Shown here: positions 2,039 to 34,104 of the stretch, one piece after another
How positions within the stretch are numbered: position 1 is the stretch's first letter
How the letters are laid out: each line of letters starts with the position of its first letter
DNA from: Patescibacteria group bacterium
Lineage (GTDB): Bacteria > Patescibacteriota > Minisyncoccia > UBA6257 > JACRHW01
Assembly (NCBI GenBank): GCA_028865725.1
Contig: JAGWJP010000001.1
Span: 294,568-358,567, forward strand
Direction of reading: 5' to 3'
DNA: 64,000 bases
Position numbers and translations under genes: made by a program
Notes under the pieces: model-generated
What the model saw: the letters and a program-made list of their open reading frames with translations, nothing else
Told to the model about the DNA's origin: nothing
Databases searched by the model: none

Positions 2039-3847
2039 TTAGTGGATCAGGGAGTGTGTGATGAGCTCAAAGAGAAACGCAAACGGAGATTGTCTATACA
2101 GTGAAGCTTGTGGAGAAGGTTGAGACGCGGGAGTGTTCTGCGGCATCATCGTCTGTGGCATTTGTGGAGTATTTTCTGGAGTAGGCAGGGGAGGGGCGGA
2201 GAGTGTTCCGGGTAGGGCATTTTCTTCTCCCCCTTGCGGTGACATTATATTTTGAGGAGGCATTTGTATATTTGTATTTTGGGGAGGGAATGATCCTTGC
2301 TGTTCTTGATTCGTATAGGGCGTCTCCGATGGTTGGTTTCCTTGCGGTCCTCCTTGTGGCATAAATTGCTGATTTCCTTCTTGCGGGGGCATCGAGCCTT
2401 GTTGTTGAGGATAATGTTCCTGAGGTATCATTCCATCTTGTGAGGGCATAGTATTCCGGTTTAGCTGGTTTGGCATTCTGTTTCCATTTTGATCACTATT
2501 TCCATGGAAGGGAGGGATCATCGTCTGCTGCTGACCGCTATGCGGCATTTCTTGTGGTCCGTTCATTCTTTGCTGTTGAGGACCATTCATGAAGGGCGTG
2601 TTCGATCCGCCAGATTCTTGTTGATGCGCGTTTTGCTGCGGCATTTGTGGAAAGCATTGGCTCATTTTTTTGCCGATATCCGATGATGGCATAATACTTC
2701 CACTTTGTAATTTTTGAAGTGTGTCTGCCCCGATAGTATTGTTCAAACACGTAAGTACGTCAGGAGGAATGTTTTGCAGCGATTTTTGCATCTGTCCCTG
2801 CTGGCTTTGCATATTCTGAAGATCTTGTTGCGAAATCAGGCCATTATCTTTCGCAAAGTTGAAACATGCTTCCTGATTGTTCGGATCTTTACAGAAGGCA
2901 TCGCATGATTCTTTTGATGTGCATCCGCCAGGGCCTTTTCCCCCCGTTTTTTTTGCGATGGCGGCATCTTCCGGTGTCATAAAGCCCGCGGCGACCGCGA
3001 AATTTGTGCATTCATCAAAATGTGCAGGTTCGGCGCAGTAGGCATCGCACGCGTCTTTTCCTTTGCAATTCGGCGGTGTTACTCCTTTTTGAAGCGCGGT
3101 GAGCACTCCTTGTGAATTTTTTTCTTCTTCCGGAGTCATGAGGCCTGCCTGTTTTGCAAACGTGATGCAGGTCGCCATGTGGGCAGGTTCGGCGCAGTAA
3201 GCATCGCACGCATCTTTACCGTTACAAGGCGGCGGCGTAGCTCCGGCGTCAATAGCAGCTACCATTTTCTTTGCATTTTCCAGATCCTGCCCCCTAAGAA
3301 ATCCTGCTGCTTCCCCGAACGCTACGCACACATGCATATGTGCCGGTTCGCTGCAGTAGGTGTCACATTCTTCTTTGTTCTTGCAAGGCGGAGGTTGCAC
3401 CCCTTTTGCAAGCGCAGATTGTATCTGTTCTGCCTGTTGCAGTTTATCAGGCGGCAGGATTCCTGTTTTCTTTGCAAATGCGACGCACTCGTTGATATGC
3501 CCAATATCATTGCAATACGCTTCACACGATTGCTGATCGGTGCACCCTCCCGGTCCCTGGGTGTCTGCGGCAATAAACTTTTTTGCGATGGCCACGTCGT
3601 TCGGAGACATCAGATTATGTTGTTCTGCAAAATCAAGACATGCTTGCACGTGGGAAGCATCATCGCAATATGTTTTGCAATCCGACTTGCTTGAGCAGTT
3701 GCCTAGGGCGGAAACAGGATAGCTGATGGTGGCGGGCGATGTAACTGGTGCAGTGCTCGTGCTTTGTGCATGAATGTGCCGCGCAGGAATCAAGACAAAA
3801 GCTGTTGCGAGACTTAAAAAAACGAATGAGAAAAGAACACGTTTCAT
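2039..3847 (-). CDS. secreted cysteine-repeat protein with Met/Gln/Pro-rich low-complexity C-terminal tail
   Basis: 602 aa with an N-terminal signal peptide (MKRVLFSFVFLSLATAFVLIPARHIHA). It has six or seven tandem ~50-aa repeats of the pattern C-x4-6-C-x3-C-x4-H-x3-C-x2-FA, for example CKGKDACDAYCAEPAHFDECTNFA. The last ~230 aa are Q/P/M/N-rich with repeated MPPQ/MPQ motifs. Confidence 0.6.
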   Translation of the reverse strand: MKRVLFSFVFLSLATAFVLIPARHIHAQSTSTAPVTSPATISYPVSALGNCSSKSDCKTYCDDASHVQACLDFAEQHNLMSPNDVAIAKKFIAADTQGPGGCTDQQSCEAYCNDIGHINECVAFAKKTGILPPDKLQQAEQIQSALAKGVQPPPCKNKEECDTYCSEPAHMHVCVAFGEAAGFLRGQDLENAKKMVAAIDAGATPPPCNGKDACDAYCAEPAHMATCITFAKQAGLMTPEEEKNSQGVLTALQKGVTPPNCKGKDACDAYCAEPAHFDECTNFAVAAGFMTPEDAAIAKKTGGKGPGGCTSKESCDAFCKDPNNQEACFNFAKDNGLISQQDLQNMQSQQGQMQKSLQNIPPDVLTCLNNTIGADTLQKLQSGSIMPSSDIGKKMSQCFPQMPQQNAHQQESGGSNTPFMNGPQQQRMNGPQEMPHSGQQQTMIPPFHGNSDQNGNRMPNQLNRNTMPSQDGMIPQEHYPQQQGSMPPQEGNQQFMPQGGPQGNQPSETPYTNQEQQGSFPPQNTNIQMPPQNIMSPQGGEENALPGTLSAPPLPTPENTPQMPQTMMPQNTPASQPSPQASLYRQSPFAFLFELITHSLIH

Positions 3848-3848
3848 A

Positions 3849-4121
3849 TTATTTGAATGGGTTTGTTTTTATGGTTGTGAAAGGATTCGCTGTTTGAATA
3901 GGGTTGAGGTTCGGTTGATTTTGAAGGGGGGTGAGGGAGTTATTGAGAGAAGGAAGCACGCCCTGCGTAACACTTGAAGCAACTGTTTGTTCAAGCCCCG
4001 AAGAAGCGGGAGGAGGTGTTAGTTTTTTGTTTGATTTATATTTCCAAAAGATAAATCCCCCTACGATGAACACTATAATAGCGATGAACACTAAAAAAAT
4101 ATTATTATGTTTGGTAGACAT
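3849..4121 (-). CDS. small membrane-anchored protein, translationally coupled to the Cys-repeat protein
   Basis: 90 aa with an N-terminal TM helix (IFLVFIAIIVFIVGGFIFW). Its stop lies 1 nt before the downstream start at 3847. The C-terminal half is Pro/Asn/Thr-rich. Confidence 0.4.
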   Translation of the reverse strand: MSTKHNNIFLVFIAIIVFIVGGFIFWKYKSNKKLTPPPASSGLEQTVASSVTQGVLPSLNNSLTPLQNQPNLNPIQTANPFTTIKTNPFK

Positions 4122-4256
4122 AGTATTGCTAGTATACCTAATAGTATATCATATTTTCATATAGTAAGATATGAACCCCGCTGTTTTTTGCATAGTATGA
4201 ATATTTGTGTTTTAATAAATTCGGGGCGTTGAAAATTGAAAGAGGAGGAACAAAAC

Positions 4257-5914: not shown

Positions 5915-7432
5915 TTAGGCAAATCCAGGAAAAAAATCTACTTTAATCTGGCGGCGCGGTACTCCCATTTGGTTCAGTATCGCCTCAAATGCAATAACCA
6001 TGGTACGAGGACCCGAGATATAGAAGGTGCATTCACAATAGTCAGGTATCTCTTTTGCAATGATCTCCGCACTGATCGATCGTGTGTAGATACCCGGAAT
6101 CGGACCTTGTTCTGCGGTTACGCTATATACTGTTTTGATTCCTAATTGTTCCCACGCTTCATCAAGGATGGGTTTATAGGCGATATCGGCCACTTTTTTG
6201 TTTGCGTAGAAAAGCGTAATGGGCCTGTGTTCCTGCATATCGATGAGGTATTTGAGCATACTGCGGAATGGAGTAATCCCAATCCCTCCCGCAATGAATA
6301 CCAGTTTTTGCGCCGGGTCGCGCGGAAGCGTAAATTCTCCTGCCAGTTGTGATGCAGTAATGGTGTCTCCTTGTTTCATCGCTGCGAGAGCGCGTTTAAA
6401 ACTGCTTCCCTGCGGATAGAATTTTACCCCTAGACGAATTTCTTGTTCTGTGGGAGAAGAGGCGATCGTGAAGTAACGGCGATTGCCGCGATCATCGGGG
6501 GACGCGTGACTGAGCGTCCACTCGAGATATTGCCCCGGGCGAAAAGAGAATGTGTGATCAGGGCGGAAGATAAAATCATACATGTCGGTTCCTATTTGTT
6601 CTACTGCGCGCAGAGAAAGAAGTAGACGTTCTTTTGGGCTTACTGCATAAGAAAAGATATTACCTGCGAGTAAGGCCAGTTCAGGCGTAAAATAAAATGA
6701 GCCAATGTGTGCAGCGGGCACGAACAAGGCGCCGACAATGGCACCGTAGAGAATGCGCATGGTACGCCCGGGAGGTGTCGTCAATGGTTCTGTGAGCATC
6801 ACAAAAGAAAAAAAGAAGAGTGATGAATGAAGGAGTGTCTGAAGTATTGGATTCAGGATTATTTTCGATGATGACGTGACTATACTTATTCCTAAGGCTA
6901 CTATAATGGCACTAAGAACAAGATCGGTTTTTTGTATTTTACGTACGACGAGAATGCCCCCCAGCACTACAAGCGGAAGAAGAGGAAGATTTCCTCCTAC
7001 CCACCATGTCGCTGATTGATTGATAGCTATTGCGGAGAGCGCTACTGCAAATGCGGCAGGGTTGAAGATGTGTTTTTTTCTGATCGCACAAAGATATTTG
7101 CATGCCATAGACCAGCTTCCCGCAAATATTAAAAATCCCAACCCTGCGGAATTTTGTGCGGTTACAGGAGAGATAATGAGTGCGAGAATGAATGCGGTAA
7201 TATAGACTGATTCTGCATTCTCCTGCGCATGAAAGACGTGAGCAAATACGCGATTTGTTATCCAAGTCACCACGAGAAGGACGATTGTGGAAAAGACGAT
7301 TGCCGTGGGATCATAGGGGAGCACTCCTAGCATGCTGAACAACGTCGCTGCGCCAAGGAGTGCGATAAGATAGTACAGTACCAAGCGATACATGGTGATC
7401 CTGTTAAGTGCGGTATCAATAAATGCGAACAT
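5915..7432 (-). CDS. RnfD/NqrB-like polytopic membrane domain fused to FNR-like FAD/NAD(P)H-binding oxidoreductase domain
   Basis: 505 aa. The N-terminal ~280 aa are multi-TM with FNPAAFA and MLTEPLTTP motifs, similar to the RnfD/NqrB TDP-region. The C-terminal ~220 aa carry FNR signatures: RRYFTIASSP (the RxYS FAD motif), GGIGITPFRSM (the NAD(P) motif) and YISGPRTM. Confidence 0.6.
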   Translation of the reverse strand: MFAFIDTALNRITMYRLVLYYLIALLGAATLFSMLGVLPYDPTAIVFSTIVLLVVTWITNRVFAHVFHAQENAESVYITAFILALIISPVTAQNSAGLGFLIFAGSWSMACKYLCAIRKKHIFNPAAFAVALSAIAINQSATWWVGGNLPLLPLVVLGGILVVRKIQKTDLVLSAIIVALGISIVTSSSKIILNPILQTLLHSSLFFFSFVMLTEPLTTPPGRTMRILYGAIVGALFVPAAHIGSFYFTPELALLAGNIFSYAVSPKERLLLSLRAVEQIGTDMYDFIFRPDHTFSFRPGQYLEWTLSHASPDDRGNRRYFTIASSPTEQEIRLGVKFYPQGSSFKRALAAMKQGDTITASQLAGEFTLPRDPAQKLVFIAGGIGITPFRSMLKYLIDMQEHRPITLFYANKKVADIAYKPILDEAWEQLGIKTVYSVTAEQGPIPGIYTRSISAEIIAKEIPDYCECTFYISGPRTMVIAFEAILNQMGVPRRQIKVDFFPGFA

Positions 7433-7455
7433 GGGTATAATAATTTTTTCCGTTT

Positions 7456-7992
7456 TTAAATTGTGGCAGGTTGGAGCGCGCTTTCTAGTGATTGTTGAAA
7501 TGCCATACTGGTATCAGTGGCACCTGAAACGATATTGACATGTGCATTTTGTGCCTGAATGGCTTCACGTTGCAAGAGAGGCATCGCCTGACTGTTAATG
7601 TAGCGTGATGTGCTTCTGTCATTCGGGTATTGCAGGAATGTGACATTAGTAATTACGCCGTTTTTTATTACGGCTTCCACTTGAACCGTCCCGTAATATG
7701 CATCTACCGGATCGCCTCGATAGGTTCCGTCTTTATATTTGCCATGTTGCGAAGAAAGGGTCGGGGCGGCAGGTTTTGCAGGTTCTGAGGCGGGGAGTGA
7801 TGAGGGGAGGGTAGAAACGGGCGTATTCGTCGTTTCAAGCAATTGCGACCCAGAAGAGACGGCAATTTGCTCCTCCGGTTGGGAAAGAAGGTTGTGAAGT
7901 GCGCGTTCCGGGGTGGTCCCTTTCATATTTACATACAAGGCATAGACGAGCGATGCCCCGATAAACCATATCGAGAGAGTAGTTTTTTTCAT
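7456..7992 (-). CDS. exported FMN-binding domain protein (NqrC/RnfG-like) with covalent-flavinylation motif
   Basis: 178 aa with an N-terminal signal anchor (LSIWFIGASLVYALYV). The FMN_bind domain ends in NIVSGATDTSMAF, which is the [S/T]GA[T/S] ApbE flavinylation site. It sits 23 bp upstream of the RnfD-FNR fusion on the same strand. Confidence 0.6.
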   Translation of the reverse strand: MKKTTLSIWFIGASLVYALYVNMKGTTPERALHNLLSQPEEQIAVSSGSQLLETTNTPVSTLPSSLPASEPAKPAAPTLSSQHGKYKDGTYRGDPVDAYYGTVQVEAVIKNGVITNVTFLQYPNDRSTSRYINSQAMPLLQREAIQAQNAHVNIVSGATDTSMAFQQSLESALQPATI

Positions 7993-21724: not shown

Positions 21725-24700
21725 TTGCGTATGAAAAAAATCAATTTATTTTTTGCTGCCGTTTTTATTGTTTCTGCAGCAAGTTTTTTATACGAATCTC
21801 ATAATGTATCTGCATTTACCGTTGCAGGTGCATTTTTACGAGATTCACAATCATTTAACGTGTTGTTCGATGCTGATGTTGCAAGTTCGACCTTCTCGAC
21901 ATCGACGTTGTCGCTGAGTACTTCTACGCTTCAGGCGGTATCAACCTTCCCAGAAAATACTCGAGAAATTTTTGGAAGTGTCTCTGGTACACTCACAACC
22001 GCCGATACGGTAACGGTATCAAGTACGGCACACGATACGTTGGGCAATGCAAACCTTGCCAGTACGACACCGTTTACCTTTTTACCTGCAATTAAAATTG
22101 CTGCGGTTCGTTCTGGAACAACAGGAAATAATCTAAATGAGTTCATCATGTTATATAACACGATGAATCAAAGTTGGAATGCCAGCTCTGCTCTCCATCT
22201 CCACGTGCTTAATGCGAGCGGACACGACAACGTCATTCCGCTTACGTTTGCAACGTCAACTATTCCGGCAAATGGCTTCTTTTTAATTGCGTCTGCCAAT
22301 GGATATGGTGGTACGATATCTCCCGACGCAACGTATAGTTCTTCCACAGATATCTTAGCTACCTCTACTACCGCTATTTTTATAAATTCCACCTCAACTC
22401 CAACTGATGCTTCTTCTATAGGATCGGTTATTGATAAGGTGGAGTGGGGTGCATCGGCTCAAATTGGGTCTTCAGTTTCTTTCTCGTTTGCCACTACGAC
22501 TGCTAGTACAAGCTTACCGCTTGATTATACATTTGTACGCAAGGCATCTTCCGCGTCTACTCCCGTGAGTATGGCCTCTGGTGGATCTGATAGTAATAAA
22601 GGCAATGGATATGATACGAGAGATAATGCGCAAGATTTTGTAATGCTTTCCGGGTCGTTGTCACCTGCGCTCAAAAATTCTGCGAGTCCGAGCGAGTTTG
22701 CGTCCGGAGGAGGGGTGCAGGATGCGACTGTTCCTATTGTTATGGGATCGTTTCCAAGCGGAATGAATGGGGAGATGGTGCCCACGGATCTGCAGTTCGT
22801 TGGATTTGGGTTTAATAAATCAATGGACGGTTCTACTATCACCTCTTCTACTGTTTCATTAGTACAGCAAGGCCAAGCCACTAATATGTGTTCTTCTGTG
22901 AGTTATAGTAATTCATTTAATACCAGTGGACCTCCGGGGCAATGTACAATTCCTGCAGGCGCGCTTATAGCGGGTTCTACCTATGTTTTCACGATCAAGG
23001 GATCGAGCTCAACCCCGAGCGTTCATGATTCTTCTGGTAATGTACTGAATCAACCGAGTGGACAAAATGGAAATGCCAATCATGATTATCAAGTCATCTT
23101 TACTCCTACATCCGGTTTTACTCTTACTCCGCAAACCCCCCCCAGTATTATAGGAAGCTTTCCCGCACCCGGTGCAAATGGAATTCCTACTAATATATCG
23201 AGTATTTCAATTGGTTTTAGTCAAGCAATAGACCCCGCATCACTCTCTGGGGTTACCCTATTGAGGAGCGGAGGCTCTAATGTACTCAATGCGTTAACAC
23301 CAAAACTTTCTTCTGATGGAAAGTCTGCAACAATTCCCGTATCCGCATCTCCCCTTTTAGCGGGAACGACTTATACGCTCACTGTGCCCACGACAGTAAG
23401 AAATAGCAATAACGTAAATTTGCCACAGACGTATACTGCTTCATTTGTTACCGGTGCGTCTGGCGGTGATATGACGGGGCCCCTTGTGTTAGGACATCTT
23501 CCGAACATTGCGACGGGGGTTCCTGTGAACGCCACAGATATTCATCTTTCTACTGATGATGCGTTGAACCCGACTACGATTACTTCCAGTACGGTTCAAA
23601 TTACTGATGCCAACGGCAATCATATTCCTGGCACATTAACTTATGATTCACTTTCTCAGGAGATTGTGTTTGTGGCTGATAATGTATTTCAAACCAACAC
23701 TCTTTATACGGTAACGTTAAACGCAGCAAGTGCAACACCTGTGATCGAAAACGTGGTAGGATTGCCTCTCCAAGATAGTGACGGGAGTAGTGATAATAAA
23801 TATACATTTAGCTTTACCACTTCGGCGTCTCCTGATACGACCCAGCCTGGACTTTTGGTTGCGAATGCAAACACGTTTTCACTTTCTCTTACTTTTGATG
23901 AAGCAGTGAAACAGACAGAGGCAGAGAATATTGCCAATTACGCCCTTACAAGCGGAGGAAATCCTGTAACACTTTCTTCATTTAATGGGAATACTGCATC
24001 GTACGACCTTTCGACGCATACTGTTACCATCAATAATCTTGCGCTTACCGCAGGAGCATCTTTTAGTGTGACGGTTTCCAATGTGCATGATCTTTCAGGG
24101 AATGTTATCGATCCTACAAAGGTAAGTGCTGGTGGTACCGTTCTTGCCCCTACTTTAAATGGGGGTATCATTGGTATGGGTGGCGGATATATTGCCCCTA
24201 CCAACGGCTTGCCTACGGGATTTTCCAGTGGATCATTTGGTTTTGTTCCTCAGGTAGGTGTTCATCCCATGAATACAACTGCGGGATTTACATCTGGGTA
24301 TGCAGTCGATCTTCCTATTTCTACACAAATCCCTGCGTCGGGAAAAATTGTACTTACCTTTCCCAGCTCATTTACGCTGGCCAATGCTATTGCTGACACC
24401 TTTAGTCCCGCCAATAACGATATCAACGGACCAGGTACTGGTACTGTTACGATTGCAAGCGTAGTGGGCGATGATACAGCGCATACAGTTACCGTGACAT
24501 TAGGCGGTACAGGAACCCAATCGAATGGAGGTGATACGCATGACTTTTTGCATTTTGATCTCGCTCAAATCGTCAATCCTACTGTACCTAATACCGCGGA
24601 TGGTTATACGATTGACATACGAACACTAAATGGGTCAAACTCTCTCGAATCTTTTACCTCCATGCCGTTTTTCATAACTTCGGCAGGAAGTAATAGTTTG

Positions 24701-27700
24701 ACAGTAAATCTTACTGCAAGTGGCGCAACAAATGGAACTTCAACGGTATATCTTTTGTCTCCTCAAACAGGTCCTATTTCGAGAGTGTCAACGGCATTTG
24801 TGGGGGCGAGCTCAACCGTTATCTTTTCTGGATTGCAGAGTGGAATGTACGCACTGATGACCGATCCTATTATTACGCTCACCGGAGGAACATTTATTGG
24901 CCAGTCAAATCCGACTCCTGTGAATGTCAATGGAAGCACATCATTTGCTCTTGCGCTTTCTCCTGCAGGTTCGCTTGCTTCAACGACGGTAAGCATTCAT
25001 GCCACAGGAGCAAAAAAGGTTTCTGTATTTGCAGGGGGTCCTAATGGTTATGTTGACACGCCGCTTACCACTTCAAACGGAACGACTACGGTAGCGATTT
25101 ATTATCCTGCAAACGGTGATTATACGGTAGGTGTTGGTCCGCAGATGAGTAAAACGTTCAACGGTCCTCCTCCTGCACCTGATTATGTGATGCCGCAGCC
25201 AGTTCAAGTTCATGTTGCTTCAAATCTTGCTTCACAAACGACACTGAGTTTCGATCTTGTTTCCGCAGGTCTTACGATCGCCGGTTCTGTCAAAGATGGT
25301 TCTGGAAAAGCAATTACAGGTGCAAACGTGTACGCGTATTCCCCGCAGGGAGGATCAGGGACTTTTGGTACCACAGCATCAGACGGTAGCTTTGCATTAA
25401 ATGTTGCCGCGGGAAGTTATGAAGTAGGCGCACGCGCTCCAGGGTTTCCTTCTGGCATTGATACGCCAGTAGTCGTAGATTCTAGTGGCAGCCTCTTTGT
25501 AAATGGCGCTGCAGCATCTTCTTCCTCGGTAACTGTTAAATTAAGCAAGGGCGGTGTGACCATAAGCGGTAAGGTAACAGATGGAACCAATCCTGTTCAA
25601 GGAGCACAAGTGTGGGCATATTGCGACTCGAGCGTAAGTAACAATGCTTGTTTTGGGCCAAATAGCAATGTTTCTGCACAAACGGATTCTTCCGGAGCCT
25701 TTACACTTTATGTCGGCAATGGAACATGGAAGATAGGATCATTTATTCCAGGATATGGCCAACAGCCCATTCTTACCCAGGTTATTTCTGGTTCAAATGT
25801 AACGCTTTCTGATATTAGGCCGTCAGCAACAGGAACATTTGCGACAGTAAGCGGTACGGTGTGTACGAACACCACATCTGATTGTACGAGCGGATCTCCT
25901 TCTGCGGTTTCTGGCGCAATGATAAGAATTCAAGGAACGGACGCAAGTGGAAATTTCTATTCTAATTCTGTAATTTCTGGGAGCGACGGATCATACTCGT
26001 TTGCATCAAGCGTTCCTTCAGGAGCTGGATCAAGCTATCGAGTGCTTGGCAATGTGGCCGGGCTTGGTGAAATTGCGCCAACAGCAAACTTTTCTGTAAC
26101 AGGAAATGTGAGCAATAAAGATCTTGTTTTGAAAGCGGGGCGCACTGTGAATCTCAATGTGAGCAACCCGCCTTCCACCTACGATATGTTCCTTAAATTC
26201 ACAAACACTACCTCTGGAGTAGCTAATTATCTTACGTTGCACAATAATGCTTCAGGAACAATATCGCTTCAGAATGGATCTACCTATGCTATTGATGCGC
26301 GCGCGCAAGGATTTTCTTTCCCTGTTTCTTTGATTACATTGACAGGGGGTACGGCAACCTATTCAACATCGACGGGGCAGCTTGCTCTTAACGGAGGCTC
26401 CTCGGATACCGTTACTCTTAATCTCGCCTTTCCTGCAGCAAATGTGGTAAGCGGTACGGTGAAAGATGGTTCTGGTACGTTATTATCGAATGCCTGGGTT
26501 GATTTTGCCGATCCAACACACGGATCTCACTTTGGAACGCAATCTAATGCAAGTGGCACCTATTCGCTTCCTATTCAGGATGGTTCGTATCAAGTTTCTG
26601 TATATGCGCCGGGATACTTGCCAAACCCAACATCGCTTTCTTTGGATGGAGGCACGATCACACTTGGAAATGCAACAACTTCAGCAAGTACGGTAAACCT
26701 TATCGCGAACAAGTCGAACCTTTTAATTGCGGGTACTATTACTATAGATGGTTCTCCCGCAGCGAATGCGCTGGTAAAAGGTACGCTTTTGGGTGGTAGT
26801 ACAAGTATTGTGACTGCAAACACTGACGGTACATATTCTTTGCCTGTATCGAATGGCAGCTGGACGGTTACTGCTTCTGCAAATGGATATCAAAATAAAG
26901 ATTATGCTTCAACAGTTACCGTGAACGGTTCTTCGGTATCAGGAGTCGATATCAATCTTACTTCTCTTGCTACTCTCGGTAATCCATCAACCCTTTCTAT
27001 CGTGCCTTCTCAAGGCGGAACGCTTCAAAATGCTTCAGGCACGTTGACGATCGCAGTTCCTGCAAATGCATTGAGTACTTCTGCAAACGCTGGTAAACTC
27101 GCAGCAACCGAAACGAGTAATGTGATCAATACTGCTTCTGCAAAAGTTTTTGGAAACGGTGTTGATATCAGCGCGCAAGATTCTTCTAATAATCCGCTTT
27201 CAAGTGGGTTTACCGATAATGTAGTAATTACGATGGATATAGCAAGCTCCTCATTTGCTGCAGATGCCCTTACAAGCACTAGTACGGCAAGCAAGATGGA
27301 ATTGGGATATTTCAAATCCTCACTGAATGACTGGGTCCCCGTTGAGACAACGCTTACGTATGAGGATGCAAATGGTGCTCCTGTAACTGCGGCGAGCGAT
27401 TTGAGCAACGTTGACCATATCAGCCTGTCGGTTCCTACAAAACACTTTACCGTGTTTGGCATAATCACTCCCACCGATGCGCTTGCGCCAAGTGCTCCTA
27501 CTAACGTTTCTGCGACTCAAAGCGGATCTTCTGCGGTGGTGACATGGACTGCACCGACTACGAATTCTGATGGAACTGCGCTTTCCGATTTGCAGGAATA
27601 TGAGATATATCGGGATACAAGCGCAAGCGGGAGTTTTACAACGCAAGTAAATTCAAGCCAAGTAACGGGGACAACATTTACCGATTCCACTGTTTCAGCA

Positions 27701-28234
27701 GGCACCACATATTACTATAAAGTTTCCGCAGCCGATACGAGTGGAAATGAATCTTCAAAGTCATCTGTTTCATCGGGGCTTGCTGTCGCTGCTCTTGTTT
27801 CCGGAGGAGGTTCCTACTCATCTGCTGCCTCTTCAGCAGCAAACCCTGTAGTTACCACTACAAACACAGAAACCTCAACGGTTGAAAATGCAACGCCAAC
27901 TTCTTCTCCCGTTTCTGCTTCTGTAAGTACGGTAACCACCCCAACATCTACGACAGCCCCCCAAGCAGTTTCTTCTACTGCACATGCAGCCGCAACACTT
28001 ACTCGATCGCTTTCTCTCGGCAGCAAAGACTCCGAAGTGACAACCCTTCAAAAACTTCTCGCATCCGATCCGTCACTTTATCCGGAAGGACTCATATCAG
28101 GCTACTTCGGCGCACTTACCAAGAAAGCAGTCATTCGATTCCAAGAAAAATATGGTATCGCGACTGATGCAGCAACAGCCGGACTTGTAGGACCAGAGAC
28201 ACGTGCGAAATTGATGGAGGTGTTAGGAAGATAG
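21725..28234 (+). CDS. giant (2169 aa) cell-surface protein with LTD, Ig-like, CarboxypepD_reg-like, FN3 and peptidoglycan-binding domains
   Basis: Signal/TM segment MRMKKINLFFAAVFIVSAASF. A lamin-tail-like domain spans roughly aa 120-270 (AIKIAAVRSGTTGNNLNEFIMLYNT...GFFLIASANGYG). Multiple Ig-like/Big repeats follow, then four or more CarboxypepD_reg-like repeats (for example GSVKDGSGKAITGANVYAY...SYEVGARAPGF). An FN3 domain follows (PSAPTNVSATQSGSSAVVTWTAP...YYYKVSAADTSGNES). The C-terminus has a PG_binding_1 domain (LSLGSKDSEVTTLQKLL...GYFGALTKKAVIRFQEKYGI). All minus-strand ORFs inside are judged spurious. Confidence 0.8.
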   Translation: MRMKKINLFFAAVFIVSAASFLYESHNVSAFTVAGAFLRDSQSFNVLFDADVASSTFSTSTLSLSTSTLQAVSTFPENTREIFGSVSGTLTTADTVTVSSTAHDTLGNANLASTTPFTFLPAIKIAAVRSGTTGNNLNEFIMLYNTMNQSWNASSALHLHVLNASGHDNVIPLTFATSTIPANGFFLIASANGYGGTISPDATYSSSTDILATSTTAIFINSTSTPTDASSIGSVIDKVEWGASAQIGSSVSFSFATTTASTSLPLDYTFVRKASSASTPVSMASGGSDSNKGNGYDTRDNAQDFVMLSGSLSPALKNSASPSEFASGGGVQDATVPIVMGSFPSGMNGEMVPTDLQFVGFGFNKSMDGSTITSSTVSLVQQGQATNMCSSVSYSNSFNTSGPPGQCTIPAGALIAGSTYVFTIKGSSSTPSVHDSSGNVLNQPSGQNGNANHDYQVIFTPTSGFTLTPQTPPSIIGSFPAPGANGIPTNISSISIGFSQAIDPASLSGVTLLRSGGSNVLNALTPKLSSDGKSATIPVSASPLLAGTTYTLTVPTTVRNSNNVNLPQTYTASFVTGASGGDMTGPLVLGHLPNIATGVPVNATDIHLSTDDALNPTTITSSTVQITDANGNHIPGTLTYDSLSQEIVFVADNVFQTNTLYTVTLNAASATPVIENVVGLPLQDSDGSSDNKYTFSFTTSASPDTTQPGLLVANANTFSLSLTFDEAVKQTEAENIANYALTSGGNPVTLSSFNGNTASYDLSTHTVTINNLALTAGASFSVTVSNVHDLSGNVIDPTKVSAGGTVLAPTLNGGIIGMGGGYIAPTNGLPTGFSSGSFGFVPQVGVHPMNTTAGFTSGYAVDLPISTQIPASGKIVLTFPSSFTLANAIADTFSPANNDINGPGTGTVTIASVVGDDTAHTVTVTLGGTGTQSNGGDTHDFLHFDLAQIVNPTVPNTADGYTIDIRTLNGSNSLESFTSMPFFITSAGSNSLTVNLTASGATNGTSTVYLLSPQTGPISRVSTAFVGASSTVIFSGLQSGMYALMTDPIITLTGGTFIGQSNPTPVNVNGSTSFALALSPAGSLASTTVSIHATGAKKVSVFAGGPNGYVDTPLTTSNGTTTVAIYYPANGDYTVGVGPQMSKTFNGPPPAPDYVMPQPVQVHVASNLASQTTLSFDLVSAGLTIAGSVKDGSGKAITGANVYAYSPQGGSGTFGTTASDGSFALNVAAGSYEVGARAPGFPSGIDTPVVVDSSGSLFVNGAAASSSSVTVKLSKGGVTISGKVTDGTNPVQGAQVWAYCDSSVSNNACFGPNSNVSAQTDSSGAFTLYVGNGTWKIGSFIPGYGQQPILTQVISGSNVTLSDIRPSATGTFATVSGTVCTNTTSDCTSGSPSAVSGAMIRIQGTDASGNFYSNSVISGSDGSYSFASSVPSGAGSSYRVLGNVAGLGEIAPTANFSVTGNVSNKDLVLKAGRTVNLNVSNPPSTYDMFLKFTNTTSGVANYLTLHNNASGTISLQNGSTYAIDARAQGFSFPVSLITLTGGTATYSTSTGQLALNGGSSDTVTLNLAFPAANVVSGTVKDGSGTLLSNAWVDFADPTHGSHFGTQSNASGTYSLPIQDGSYQVSVYAPGYLPNPTSLSLDGGTITLGNATTSASTVNLIANKSNLLIAGTITIDGSPAANALVKGTLLGGSTSIVTANTDGTYSLPVSNGSWTVTASANGYQNKDYASTVTVNGSSVSGVDINLTSLATLGNPSTLSIVPSQGGTLQNASGTLTIAVPANALSTSANAGKLAATETSNVINTASAKVFGNGVDISAQDSSNNPLSSGFTDNVVITMDIASSSFAADALTSTSTASKMELGYFKSSLNDWVPVETTLTYEDANGAPVTAASDLSNVDHISLSVPTKHFTVFGIITPTDALAPSAPTNVSATQSGSSAVVTWTAPTTNSDGTALSDLQEYEIYRDTSASGSFTTQVNSSQVTGTTFTDSTVSAGTTYYYKVSAADTSGNESSKSSVSSGLAVAALVSGGGSYSSAASSAANPVVTTTNTETSTVENATPTSSPVSASVSTVTTPTSTTAPQAVSSTAHAAATLTRSLSLGSKDSEVTTLQKLLASDPSLYPEGLISGYFGALTKKAVIRFQEKYGIATDAATAGLVGPETRAKLMEVLGR

Positions 28235-31655: not shown

Positions 31656-31719
31656 TATTAGCATATTTTTTGTGAAACAAAGAGCGCGTGCTACAATAAA
31701 AACGGTTAACTATATTTTT

Positions 31720-34104
31720 ATGAACGCAAAACAGGTTTCTATTCCCACTGTTCTTGTTATTTTTGGTGCAACCGGAGATCTTATGGCTCGGAAAATCGCT
31801 CCTGCATTATTTAACCTCTCGCAAAAAGGAAAGCTCCCTGAGAAACTGAGATTTGTAGGGGTAGCGCGAAGAGAGTTGTCCTCCATCGATTTTCGTAAAC
31901 ATTTAAAAGACGCGCTCAAAGGGCGTGTAAAGGGTACTTCAACACAGGTTCATGAGTTTCTTGATATGTTTCTGTACCACCAAGGACTTCTTGATGCGCG
32001 CGAAATGTATATTTCTCTCGCAGAGGTACTCCATAGTATTGATGAAGAGTGGGGTGTGTGCAGTAACAAACTTTTTTATCTCGCGGTTCCTCCGGAGCTT
32101 TACAAAACGATATTCGAACATCTTGCCGCATCAGGGCTTACTATTCCTTGTGGAGGGGATGAAGGGTGGACACGTGTCCTTGTGGAAAAGCCGTTTGGGA
32201 GCGATCTGGCAACCGCAGAGGAACTTGATCGGGTATTGGGTTCCTTGTTCCACGAGAGTCAGATTTACCGCATCGATCATTATCTCGCGAAAGAAATGAT
32301 ACAGAATATTCTCGCATTTCGTTTTTCCAACAATCTTTTTGAAGAGAGCTGGGATGCGCACCACATTGAACGTATCGACATACGACTGTTCGAGACGCTC
32401 GGGGTAGAGGAGCGCGGAATGTTTTATGATCACGTGGGCGCATTGGTGGATGTGGGACAAAACCATCTCTTGCAGATGCTCGCGCTTATTGCGATGGACC
32501 CCCCTACTTCTCTCGGCGCGGAGAGCGTGCGAAAAGCGCGCGCACATATTTTAGAGAGTTTGCATCCAATGTCTTCTCGCGATATCCAGTATGCCACCTT
32601 TCGTGGCCAGTATAGGGGGTATTTGGACATTAAAGGCGTGCGTCCTCGCTCTACCACGGAGACATTTTTTAAGATTATTACGACACTTGATCATCCGCGC
32701 TGGGGATCTGTTCCATTTGTGCTGGAAGGCGGGAAAGGGATGGCGGAACAGCGAAAAGAGATTGTGGTTACGTTTCGTCACCCCACCCCGTGTTTGTGTC
32801 CCCCTCTGCAACACTACAAAAATAAGGTTATTATCTCGCTCGAGCCTCATGAAAGTATTGTGATTCAATTTTGGTCTAAGAAACCAGGATTTGATTTTCA
32901 AATGGAAGAACGCACCTTTGATTTCTTTTTGCGTGATGCGAAGGTGAGATCTCAGTATGTAGAAGAGTATGAAAAATTGCTTCTTGATTGTATCGCGGGA
33001 GATCAAACGTTGTTTGTAAGTACCGATGAGGTGCGTGCGATGTGGAGGTTTATTGATCCTATCGTAGCTGCATGGCGCGGTGAAAAAACGGTGCCCGTTG
33101 TTTCTTATACGCGCGGATCGAATGAGGCGGCAGAAAAGTCGGTTGTGCTTGAGAAGTCTTTGCTTCCTGTAACACTAAAGCATAAAGAAGTTGCGATTGT
33201 GGGATTGGGAAAAATGGGTGGAAATATTGCGCGCCAGCTTTTGCGGAAGGGGTGGCATGTCACAGGGTTTAATCGCTCGCGTGAGGCGACTGACGCACTC
33301 ACGAAGGAAGGGCTTTGTGGCGTGTATGAGGCAAAAAATCTTTTCGATACGCTTCACGCTCCTCGTATCTTCTGGTTTATGCTGCCGTCGCGCGAAACAG
33401 GGAATATCGCACCCATCGACGGGATATTATTTGGGAAAAATGGAATTGCAGCACAGCTTCGCAAAGGCGATATTGTGATTGATGGCGCAAACGCGTTTTA
33501 TAAGGATTCGATACGCCGCTATCGCGCGCTCAAAAAGCGTGGGGTAGGGTTTCTTGACGTAGGTGTTTCAGGTGGCCCTCAAGGCGCACTCCGTGGCGCA
33601 TCGCTCATGATTGGGGGTGATCGTGAAGTGTTTCTGCGCGCAGAGCCACTGTTTCGTGATATTGCGGAGTTGGGTGCCTACCAATTCTTCGAAGGCGCAG
33701 GTGCGGGACATTTTGTGAAGATGGTACACAACGGCATTGAGTACGGAATGATGCAGGCCTTGGCAGAAGGGTTTGCGATTATGAAGGCTTCGAAGTACCA
33801 CCTCGATCTTACTCGTGTTGCTGATGTCTACAACCATGGCAGTGTGATAGAGTCACGTCTTGTGGGTTGGTTGAAACAAGGGTTTATTACCTATGGCGAG
33901 GATCTTCGTAGTGTTTCAGGGACGGTGGGGCATACCGGTGAGGGGGCATGGACTGTTGAGACCGCAAAAGAACTGAAGGTGCAGGTAAAGATTATTGAGG
34001 GCGCGCTCCAGTTTCGCAAACAGTCCGCAAAGAACCCAAGTTATACAGGAAAGATTCTTAGCATGATTCGTAACCAGTTCGGAGGACACAGTATTAGTAG
34101 TTAG
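31720..34104 (+). CDS. zwf: fused glucose-6-phosphate 1-dehydrogenase / 6-phosphogluconate dehydrogenase (decarboxylating, short form)
   Basis: The N-terminal ~480 aa carry VIFGATGDLMARKIAPALFNL (the G6PD NADP fold), RIDHYLAKEMIQNILAFRFSN (the G6PD active-site motif) and a G6PD C-terminal domain. The C-terminal ~300 aa carry VAIVGLGKMGGNIARQL, GVSGGPQGALRGASLMIGG and GAGHFVKMVHNGIEYGMMQ (6PGDH/Gnd-like). The start is preferred at ATG 31720. Confidence 0.75.
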   Translation: MNAKQVSIPTVLVIFGATGDLMARKIAPALFNLSQKGKLPEKLRFVGVARRELSSIDFRKHLKDALKGRVKGTSTQVHEFLDMFLYHQGLLDAREMYISLAEVLHSIDEEWGVCSNKLFYLAVPPELYKTIFEHLAASGLTIPCGGDEGWTRVLVEKPFGSDLATAEELDRVLGSLFHESQIYRIDHYLAKEMIQNILAFRFSNNLFEESWDAHHIERIDIRLFETLGVEERGMFYDHVGALVDVGQNHLLQMLALIAMDPPTSLGAESVRKARAHILESLHPMSSRDIQYATFRGQYRGYLDIKGVRPRSTTETFFKIITTLDHPRWGSVPFVLEGGKGMAEQRKEIVVTFRHPTPCLCPPLQHYKNKVIISLEPHESIVIQFWSKKPGFDFQMEERTFDFFLRDAKVRSQYVEEYEKLLLDCIAGDQTLFVSTDEVRAMWRFIDPIVAAWRGEKTVPVVSYTRGSNEAAEKSVVLEKSLLPVTLKHKEVAIVGLGKMGGNIARQLLRKGWHVTGFNRSREATDALTKEGLCGVYEAKNLFDTLHAPRIFWFMLPSRETGNIAPIDGILFGKNGIAAQLRKGDIVIDGANAFYKDSIRRYRALKKRGVGFLDVGVSGGPQGALRGASLMIGGDREVFLRAEPLFRDIAELGAYQFFEGAGAGHFVKMVHNGIEYGMMQALAEGFAIMKASKYHLDLTRVADVYNHGSVIESRLVGWLKQGFITYGEDLRSVSGTVGHTGEGAWTVETAKELKVQVKIIEGALQFRKQSAKNPSYTGKILSMIRNQFGGHSISS

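Follow-up and report, generated by a model that had tools for sequence, protein, structure and literature searches.

The question raised by this locus is what two adjoining reverse-strand genes of a Patescibacteria group bacterium, one for a secreted protein of 602 amino acids (aa) with tandem cysteine repeats and one for a 90-aa single-pass membrane protein, make together at the cell envelope. The window, by which we mean the whole stretch of 64,000 nucleotides (nt) analysed here, comes from contig JAGWJP010000001.1 of assembly GCA_028865725.1 and carries both genes near its start. We found the two to be a conserved and tightly coupled two-gene unit, in which a Sec-exported helical array of four-Cys repeats with a spacer behind it is paired with a small anchored protein that carries a peptide of Asn-Pro (NP) motifs. 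A plausible though tentative reading is that this operon, conserved across Parcubacteria, builds a cell-envelope protein complex in which a disulfide-stapled helical rod is held by the NP peptide. The large gene and the parts of its product map to the window as follows.

2039..3847 (-), large gene, KGI50_01685, coding for the secreted Cys-repeat protein (open reading frame (ORF) list, NCBI gene call, homologue clusters)
3767..3847 (-), Sec-type signal peptide, aa 1-27, with likely cleavage at ...HIHA↓QS (sequence layout; the family consensus ends in ...AQ; low predicted local distance difference test score, pLDDT)
2831..3721 (-), six three-helix repeats, aa 43-339, each with four invariant Cys in the spacing C-x5-C-x3-C-x8-C (regular expression, alignments, AlphaFold2 (AF2) model)
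2618..2830 (-), post-repeat helical domain, aa 340-410, with the isolated Cys pair C367 and C398 (alignments; four helices predicted by AF2 at pLDDT >90)
2084..2617 (-), Q/P/M/N-rich tail predicted to be disordered, aa 411-588 (pLDDT 35-53, no secondary structure)
2042..2083 (-), C-terminal amphipathic helix, aa 589-602, FAFLFELITHSLIH (conserved family motif; predicted as a helix by AF2 at pLDDT ~50-58)

The product of this ORF is identical to NCBI protein KGI50_01685 of the Patescibacteria metagenome-assembled genome GCA_028868355.1. Its N-terminus, as read from the sequence, consists of MKR, 17 hydrophobic residues and the cleavage site given above, which is the layout of a Sec signal peptide; the same type of layout was seen in 114 of 120 homologues, and the signal peptide called in the original prediction is thus borne out. 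None of the 120 homologues has a twin-arginine motif in its signal peptide, which sets the family apart from Tat-exported cofactor proteins. Also, the protein is not a bacterial lipoprotein, as the query signal peptide contains no Cys and a lipobox-like string occurs in only 4 of the 120 homologues. The regular expression C-x5-C-x3-C-x8-C-x2-F[AG] matched the query six times, with starts at aa 51, 102, 155, 208, 261 and 309 (periods of 51, 53, 53, 53 and 48 aa), and did not match at all in 20,000 shuffles of the protein. The tandem repeats of ~50 aa that had been put at 6-7 are therefore real, but their number is exactly six.

How far this architecture is conserved was read from a search of 5.8 billion proteins (E<=1e-3), which gave 1,134 homologue clusters of the large protein with ~50% identity across the first two thirds of the query. 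All the named homologues belong to Patescibacteria (Liptonbacteria, Paceibacteria, Azambacteria, Nealsonbacteria, Portnoybacteria and others) and every label among them is 'hypothetical'. With one genome taken per species, 176 loci encoding the large protein were identified, 80 of which are the basis of the locus counts given here, and alignments were made of 30, 107 and 120 members. Every repeat Cys (24 positions) is invariant or nearly so in all three alignments. Over the 120 homologues and 24 positions not one single-Cys substitution was observed, Cys being lost only through in-register deletion of a whole repeat, and the Cys count is even in 117 of the 120. The isolated pair C367/C398 of the post-repeat domain is invariant or near-invariant in the family. 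This survey upholds the four Cys per repeat of the original prediction but not the one His, which is no conserved ligand and alternates with Asn (51% H and 47% N across all repeats). Asn takes the position in 97 of 120 sequences for repeat 1, in 76 of 120 for repeat 4 and in 103 of 107 for repeat 6, and repeats 2, 3 and 5 mostly have His, which is ~85-90% conserved there; the query itself carries His in repeats 1-5 and Asn in repeat 6. Between species, repeats of the same index are 60-72% identical as against 29-52% for repeats of different indices, and exactly six contiguous array repeats were counted in 62 of 66 loci. Because same-index identity exceeds different-index identity and the repeat number is fixed, the array is, judging by these sequences, ancient and each repeat position is individually constrained.

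It may be noted that three contigs with typical copies of the pair (L061, L064 and L070) are labelled Aenigmatarchaeota or Gammaproteobacteria, and that many others have the generic label 'uncultured Candidatus Saccharibacteria'. Such non-Parcubacteria labels are probably artefacts of binning or labelling, not real occurrences of the pair outside Parcubacteria. In 59-72 loci long ORFs also recur on the strand opposite the Cys-repeat gene (e.g. 3179..3694 on the forward strand, 171 aa); their conservation mirrors that of the sense gene, and they are best regarded as its non-coding shadows. A literature search on the Cys-repeat family or its partner returned nothing specific, and only a general family survey of the Candidate Phyla Radiation (CPR) turned up.

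For aa 28-410, AF2 with 120 sequences predicts an all-alpha fold with three helices per repeat (pLDDT 91.2, predicted template modelling score 0.73). In this model the first Cys of each unit is placed in the loop before helix 1, the second and third are one turn apart in helix 1, and the fourth sits together with the F-A residues in helix 2, with H3 as the third helix. A sequence profile search of PDB with the large protein gave 0 matches, and Foldseek against PDB and viral models gave none at E<=0.001. The best Foldseek matches of the array are generic PPR, ankyrin, TPR and Sel1 solenoids with insignificant E values of 0.4-5, and Rap, NprR and PlcR are among such insignificant helical-repeat fold matches. 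With Pfam/NCBIfam, the best matches of the whole large protein are AtDEF-like at 22.2 bits (cut-off 25) and TusD at 13.9 bits, none of which reaches the curated cut-off; at E<=10 no match, or 15 bits at most, was obtained for single repeats, for the post-repeat domain or for the C-terminus, and the 90-aa small protein gave sub-threshold matches only, to transmembrane (TM) models of LPXTG anchors. The Cys-repeat domain is unnamed, as had been suspected at the outset, it is without a structural relative in PDB, and the gene pair is undescribed.

Behind the helical part, residues 371-602 of the query contain 17.7% Q, 15.5% P and 7.3% M, in agreement with the low-complexity tail described before, and no tandem repeat was found in the query tail at the DNA level. 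The medians over 114 family tails are 19% P, 14% G, 11% Q, 4.7% M (range 0-14%) and 0.4% H. Motifs of the type Mx(1-3)M are missing in 73 of 113 tails (family median 0), and the query has one (0.49 per 100 aa). The proposal of a Met-rich, Cu(I)-type tail thus fails as a family trait; this copper reading describes a peculiarity of one sequence, and from the sequences compared the conserved property of the tail is that of a disordered P/G/Q-rich spacer, with the Met/His flavour specific to the query. In 89 of the 114 homologues the tail carries 1-3 shortened modules GPGGC-x5-C-x3-C-x7-C, of which the query has none. At the very C-terminus lies a motif of ~15 aa that is conserved in the family, P(Q/P)S(F/L)..LGS(I/L)(I/L)..F.., whose apolar run (median ~7 aa) is too short and too amphipathic for a TM helix; the helix is not confidently docked in the full-length AF2 model. 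As LP.TG was found in the last 60 aa of none of the 120 homologues, the protein is not a sortase (LPXTG) substrate.

The partner of this protein is encoded directly upstream, with the following features.

3849..4121 (-), small partner gene, KGI50_01690, 90 aa, for a signal-anchor-type single-pass membrane protein (ORF list, NCBI gene call, phmmer family, synteny)
4044..4103 (-), TM helix of the small protein, aa 7-26, NIFLVFIAIIVFIVGGFIFW (family hydropathy)
3852..3971 (-), conserved C-terminal peptide of the small protein, aa 51-90, VTQGVLPSLNNSLTPLQNQPNLNPIQTANPFTTIKTNPFK, with three NP and one degenerate TP (78-sequence consensus)
4131..4175 (-), two overlapping sigma-70-like promoter matches upstream of the small gene (9/12 each; weak), the number of such sites there being not above shuffle expectation

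The upstream 90-aa protein with a single TM segment is therefore present as had been described. Its TAA stop at 3849-3851 is followed after one base by the ATG of the large gene at 3845-3847, so the gap is 1 nt and the overlap of stop and start claimed for the two genes was wrong by two bases. Homologous loci have gaps between -8 and a few tens of nt, and those of -8 to a few nt suggest translational coupling. An ORF of 70-120 aa is present directly upstream of the large gene on the same strand in 77 of the 80 loci. The next most frequent neighbour family reaches 8 loci at most, no other conserved neighbour of the pair was found among the 80, and the neighbours in the query window (SdpI, isochorismatase, RnfD-like/FMN_bind) are not common to other loci. 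The claim that the two genes are one unit which co-occurs in relatives holds even where the small protein has diverged to 26% identity, as this member again adjoins a Cys-repeat gene, 5 nt upstream of it.

The family of the small protein was taken from an exhaustive phmmer search, as a word-indexed search with the 90-aa protein had found only itself, and it comprises 129 representative clusters, 125 of them short. In each of these 125 the C-terminus is formed by NP[FYLI] and <=4 further aa. The consensus has MxKK, a TM segment of ~22 aa ending in GGYFYW (family median hydropathy 2.67 over 19 aa), a variable linker of ~25 aa and then the conserved peptide, which over 78 sequences reads SATxGVLPSxxxNPLENKPDxNPxxKANPFKxIKTNPFx and has its four NP dipeptides 91-100% conserved. 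The consensus shows no G-F..E motif of a class III signal peptide (G↓F/M-x-x-x-E), and the small protein is hence not type IV pilin-like. Of 110 members compared for the charges around the TM segment, 68 are more positive on the N-flank and 20 on the C-flank, and in 22 the two flanks are equal. Because of these 68 members an N-in/C-out orientation is favoured as a majority call on sequence, in which the query is atypical (N-flank +1 vs C-flank +4). A natural fusion of the small and large proteins was seen in none of the 120 homologues and 71 loci. A correlation between repeat number and NP-motif number (Spearman 0.34, p=0.005) was dropped as docking evidence, as it was an artefact of a strict regular expression that counted tail modules and missed divergent array repeats.

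How might the two products work together? In the reading that we prefer, the four Cys of each unit would form two disulfides by which the N-terminal loop and helices 1 (with its Cx3C) and 2 are stapled together, and one further disulfide would join C367 and C398 in the post-repeat domain. Such staples would make the array a rigid rod that is stable outside the cell. The disulfides are suggested by the lack of any single-Cys substitution, the even Cys parity, the lone Cys pair, which cannot form a Cys4 site, the Sec-type signal, a DsbA-like gene near the pair and the report of an MdbA-like oxidoreductase that is CPR-wide, has a conserved CxxC and often adjoins VKOR (Meheust et al., bioRxiv 10.1101/335083). 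The DsbA/Thioredoxin_4 gene, whose product is membrane-anchored, follows downstream of the pair, at a distance of ~2.4 kb, in 5 of the 80 loci (e.g. L003, 10078..10827), and such organisms therefore encode extracytoplasmic thiol-disulfide oxidoreductases; no DsbA was found within the 64-kb window, which is uninformative as the window is a fraction of the genome. Sec export, an even number of conserved Cys and oxidative folding genes in the organisms would fit the general class of disulfide-stapled secreted proteins, to which the large protein may belong. Of the two options that had been offered for the Cys, disulfide-knotted modules or metal sites, the first is thus the better one and the second, which the sequences do not support, is unlikely.

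With its anchor N-in/C-out, the small protein would hold its NP-motif peptide outside the cell, where the peptide would dock along the repeat array. The two proteins would then form a 1:1 complex, with the rod tethered by the peptide to the membrane on its outer face. We infer the docking from the obligate synteny and coupling of the genes and from the extreme conservation of the free C-terminal peptide. The complex would then have a conserved housekeeping role in the envelope, as a scaffold, a spacer or for ligand capture, and would be neither a species-specific adhesin nor a copper-binding protein; housekeeping-like conservation and the fixed repeat number point to such a conserved function, as they argue against a rapidly adapting adhesin. 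Some observations weigh against this proposal. No natural fusion of the two proteins was seen in the homologues and loci given above, and their interaction is deduced from synteny and conservation. The correlation of repeat number with NP-motif number vanishes on a proper count (rho 0.21, p 0.09). The flank charges of the query would place its small-protein peptide in the cytoplasm, the topology being a majority call only. Also, the water that many Patescibacteria inhabit is anoxic, and exposed thiols could there remain reduced and bind metals.

The last of these points bears on an alternative in which the array is an extracellular metal or cluster array, the four Cys (with His) of each repeat binding Zn, Fe, Ni or Cu as a store, scavenger, buffer or redox-active thiol array, and the Met tail aiding Cu(I) capture. 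We consider this unlikely, with some real chance of being right. Four invariant Cys at a fixed spacing in every repeat would suit metal sites, as would a His at +5 in about half of the repeats with its high conservation in repeats 2, 3 and 5, the 7.4% Met and 2.9% His of the query tail and the anoxic habitats of many such organisms, but the His alternates with Asn, a poor soft-metal ligand, repeat 6 is nearly always Asn, and the Met/His enrichment is not conserved in tails that mostly have no Mx(1-3)M. The Sec-type rather than Tat-type signal argues against a pre-assembled cofactor, the conserved lone Cys pair and the even Cys parity fit disulfides, and in the model three of the four Cys are inside helices instead of knuckle-type loops. 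In favour of copper would be the gene for a cupredoxin/copper-binding protein of 149 aa that is a few genes away from the pair, ~3 kb outside the window on the side of position 1 (L081, 6871..7320, contig JAGWUQ010000001.1); yet no metal-handling gene is conserved near the pair, and the cupredoxin gene does not rescue the copper hypothesis because it is not a conserved neighbour in other loci. A host-contact adhesin of an episymbiont, where the array, on a proline-rich stalk as in staphylococcal protein A or the streptococcal GA modules, would bind a host surface molecule and the small protein would merely be a chaperone or anchor, is in our estimate quite unlikely. The conservation already described, ~50% identity and six repeats in nearly all loci, spans many candidate phyla with presumably different hosts, and host-binding adhesins usually vary; the family has no LPXTG or other known wall-sorting signal, and its C-terminal helix is too short to span a membrane. 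These objections stand against the signal peptide, the tandem three-helix units of ~50 aa, the P-rich disordered spacer and the C-terminal hydrophobic element, all of which an adhesin might have, against a second, giant surface protein encoded in the same window and against the prediction that Patescibacteria are symbionts (Meheust et al., bioRxiv 10.1101/335083).

The small protein itself admits of two further explanations. It is very unlikely, in our view, that the two proteins, although co-expressed, have separate actions, as might be so if the C-terminus of the small protein were in the cytoplasm and adjacency reflected shared regulation only. The query flank charges, the 20 of 110 members with the more positive C-flank, the lack of fusions and the lack of significant covariation in counts are consistent with it, but near-universal adjacency and start/stop coupling in very divergent genomes, while the other neighbours change, is a pattern typical of physically interacting subunits. 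Most unlikely of all is a pro-peptide and its binder, in which the small protein would release its C-terminal peptide and the helical-repeat protein would bind, carry or process it, like the peptide/receptor pairs of Gram-positive bacteria. A small gene that adjoins a helical-repeat gene, a conservation concentrated in the C-terminal 35 aa and ending at the free C-terminus, and the occurrence of Rap, NprR and PlcR among the insignificant fold matches are what speaks for such a pair; however, the near-invariance of the peptide from lineage to lineage is not that of signalling pherotypes, the hydrophobic segment of ~22 aa is followed by no A-x-A cleavage site and so is anchor-like, and no protease or exporter is conserved nearby. 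The envelope complex of stapled rod and NP peptide is therefore the reading that we retain, at the tentative level given above.

Other genes of the window are as follows. A 505-aa protein with an NqrB/RnfD-like membrane domain fused to FAD- and NAD-binding ferredoxin-reductase domains is encoded at 5915..7992 (-) and is preceded by a 178-aa secreted FMN_bind protein. Together they have the look of a flavin-based module for extracytosolic electron transfer such as those surveyed in PMC8238504, and this module is not conserved beside the Cys-repeat pair in other genomes. The segment 8033..9333 (-) encodes an extracytoplasmic function (ECF)-type sigma factor (Sigma70_r2/r4_2) and, behind it, a multi-TM protein of 237 aa without a Pfam match, possibly the anti-sigma factor. 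An ORF of 2,169 aa at 21725..28234 (+) has CarboxypepD_reg, Big_5 and fn3 domains and a C-terminal PG_binding_1, and is apparently a large surface protein anchored via peptidoglycan binding; the GC content dips to 0.39 at 20-22 kb, just upstream of it, and the GC skew changes sign at 20-28 kb. The 810-aa ORF at 31672..34104 (+) combines glucose-6-phosphate dehydrogenase (G6PD_N/C) and 6-phosphogluconate dehydrogenase domains in one polypeptide. No tRNA or tmRNA genes were found in the 64-kb window by ARAGORN.

The Parcubacteria (Paceibacteria) are a huge and almost uncultured radiation whose envelope and host-interface components are largely unknown. With ~50% identity across many candidate phyla and a fixed six-repeat architecture, the pair is among their better-conserved extracytoplasmic proteins, and both members are unnamed, outside the Pfam families and without structural relatives. 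It is also compact and experimentally tractable, consisting of a confidently predicted helical rod of 400 aa and a 35-aa peptide, and its possible uses include probing the CPR envelope, marking the lineage and offering a surface epitope by which these cells could be labelled or enriched. A bolder proposal, which we regard as speculative and on the whole unlikely, is that Parcubacteria have in this pair a core device of their envelope that had so far gone unrecognised. The device would be either a new Cys4 helical repeat class that reads a membrane-anchored Asn-Pro turn peptide, and thus a new peptide-recognition module, or a set of 24-40 invariant extracellular thiols with a functional redox or metal activity in anoxic habitats. 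In both cases the pair would be essential in the cell-surface organisation or host contact of these ultra-small symbionts.

On comparing the pair with known systems, a similar layout is that of staphylococcal protein A and the GA/albumin-binding modules of protein G/PAB, which likewise have a signal peptide, tandem three-helix units of ~50-58 aa, a Pro-rich spacer and a C-terminal hydrophobic element. These are Gram-positive surface proteins in which three-helix-bundle modules are carried on a proline-rich wall-spanning stalk. The Helicobacter cysteine-rich proteins (Hcp) and other Sel1-like repeats (SLR) are similar in being secreted alpha-helical repeats with a disulfide cross-link per repeat, as would be the case here, but a Sel1-like repeat has ~36 aa, two helices and one disulfide, whereas the Cys-repeat protein has units of 48-53 aa with three helices and four Cys. 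It has no match to the Sel1 hidden Markov model (HMM), its Foldseek matches to SLR/TPR proteins have E>0.3, and it does not belong to the Sel1/Hcp class. CHCH or twin-Cx3C and twin-Cx9C proteins (Cox17, small Tims) resemble it in their helix-loop-helix units, in having two disulfides, which the Cys-repeat units would share, and in a Cx3C within a helix. Cox17 binds Cu(I). The Cys-repeat protein differs from this group in its spacing C-x5-C-x3-C-x8-C with one Cys in helix 2, its tandem array, its Sec export and its bacterial origin, and no match to the CHCH HMM was found in it. Periplasmic proteins that bind Cu(I) through Met-rich stretches, such as CopC/PcoC, CusF and CueO with its Met-rich insert, are resembled by the query tail in its Met content and few His; however, the family is essentially without clustered MxxM/MxM and its Met/His are not conserved, so it is not of this class, and the tail is predicted to be disordered, with no cupredoxin-like or CusF-like fold. 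The lambda-repressor-like or XRE helix-turn-helix, a five-helix DNA-binding domain, was also considered for comparison with the repeat array. For the partner, the eukaryotic EH domains offer an analogy, as in these a small helical domain binds an NPF turn motif, NPF recognition being a property of EH domains, and the small protein here has repeated NP(F/L) motifs. The general kind is a familiar one, in which a secreted protein of helical repeats, probably stapled by disulfides, is carried on a Pro-rich spacer.

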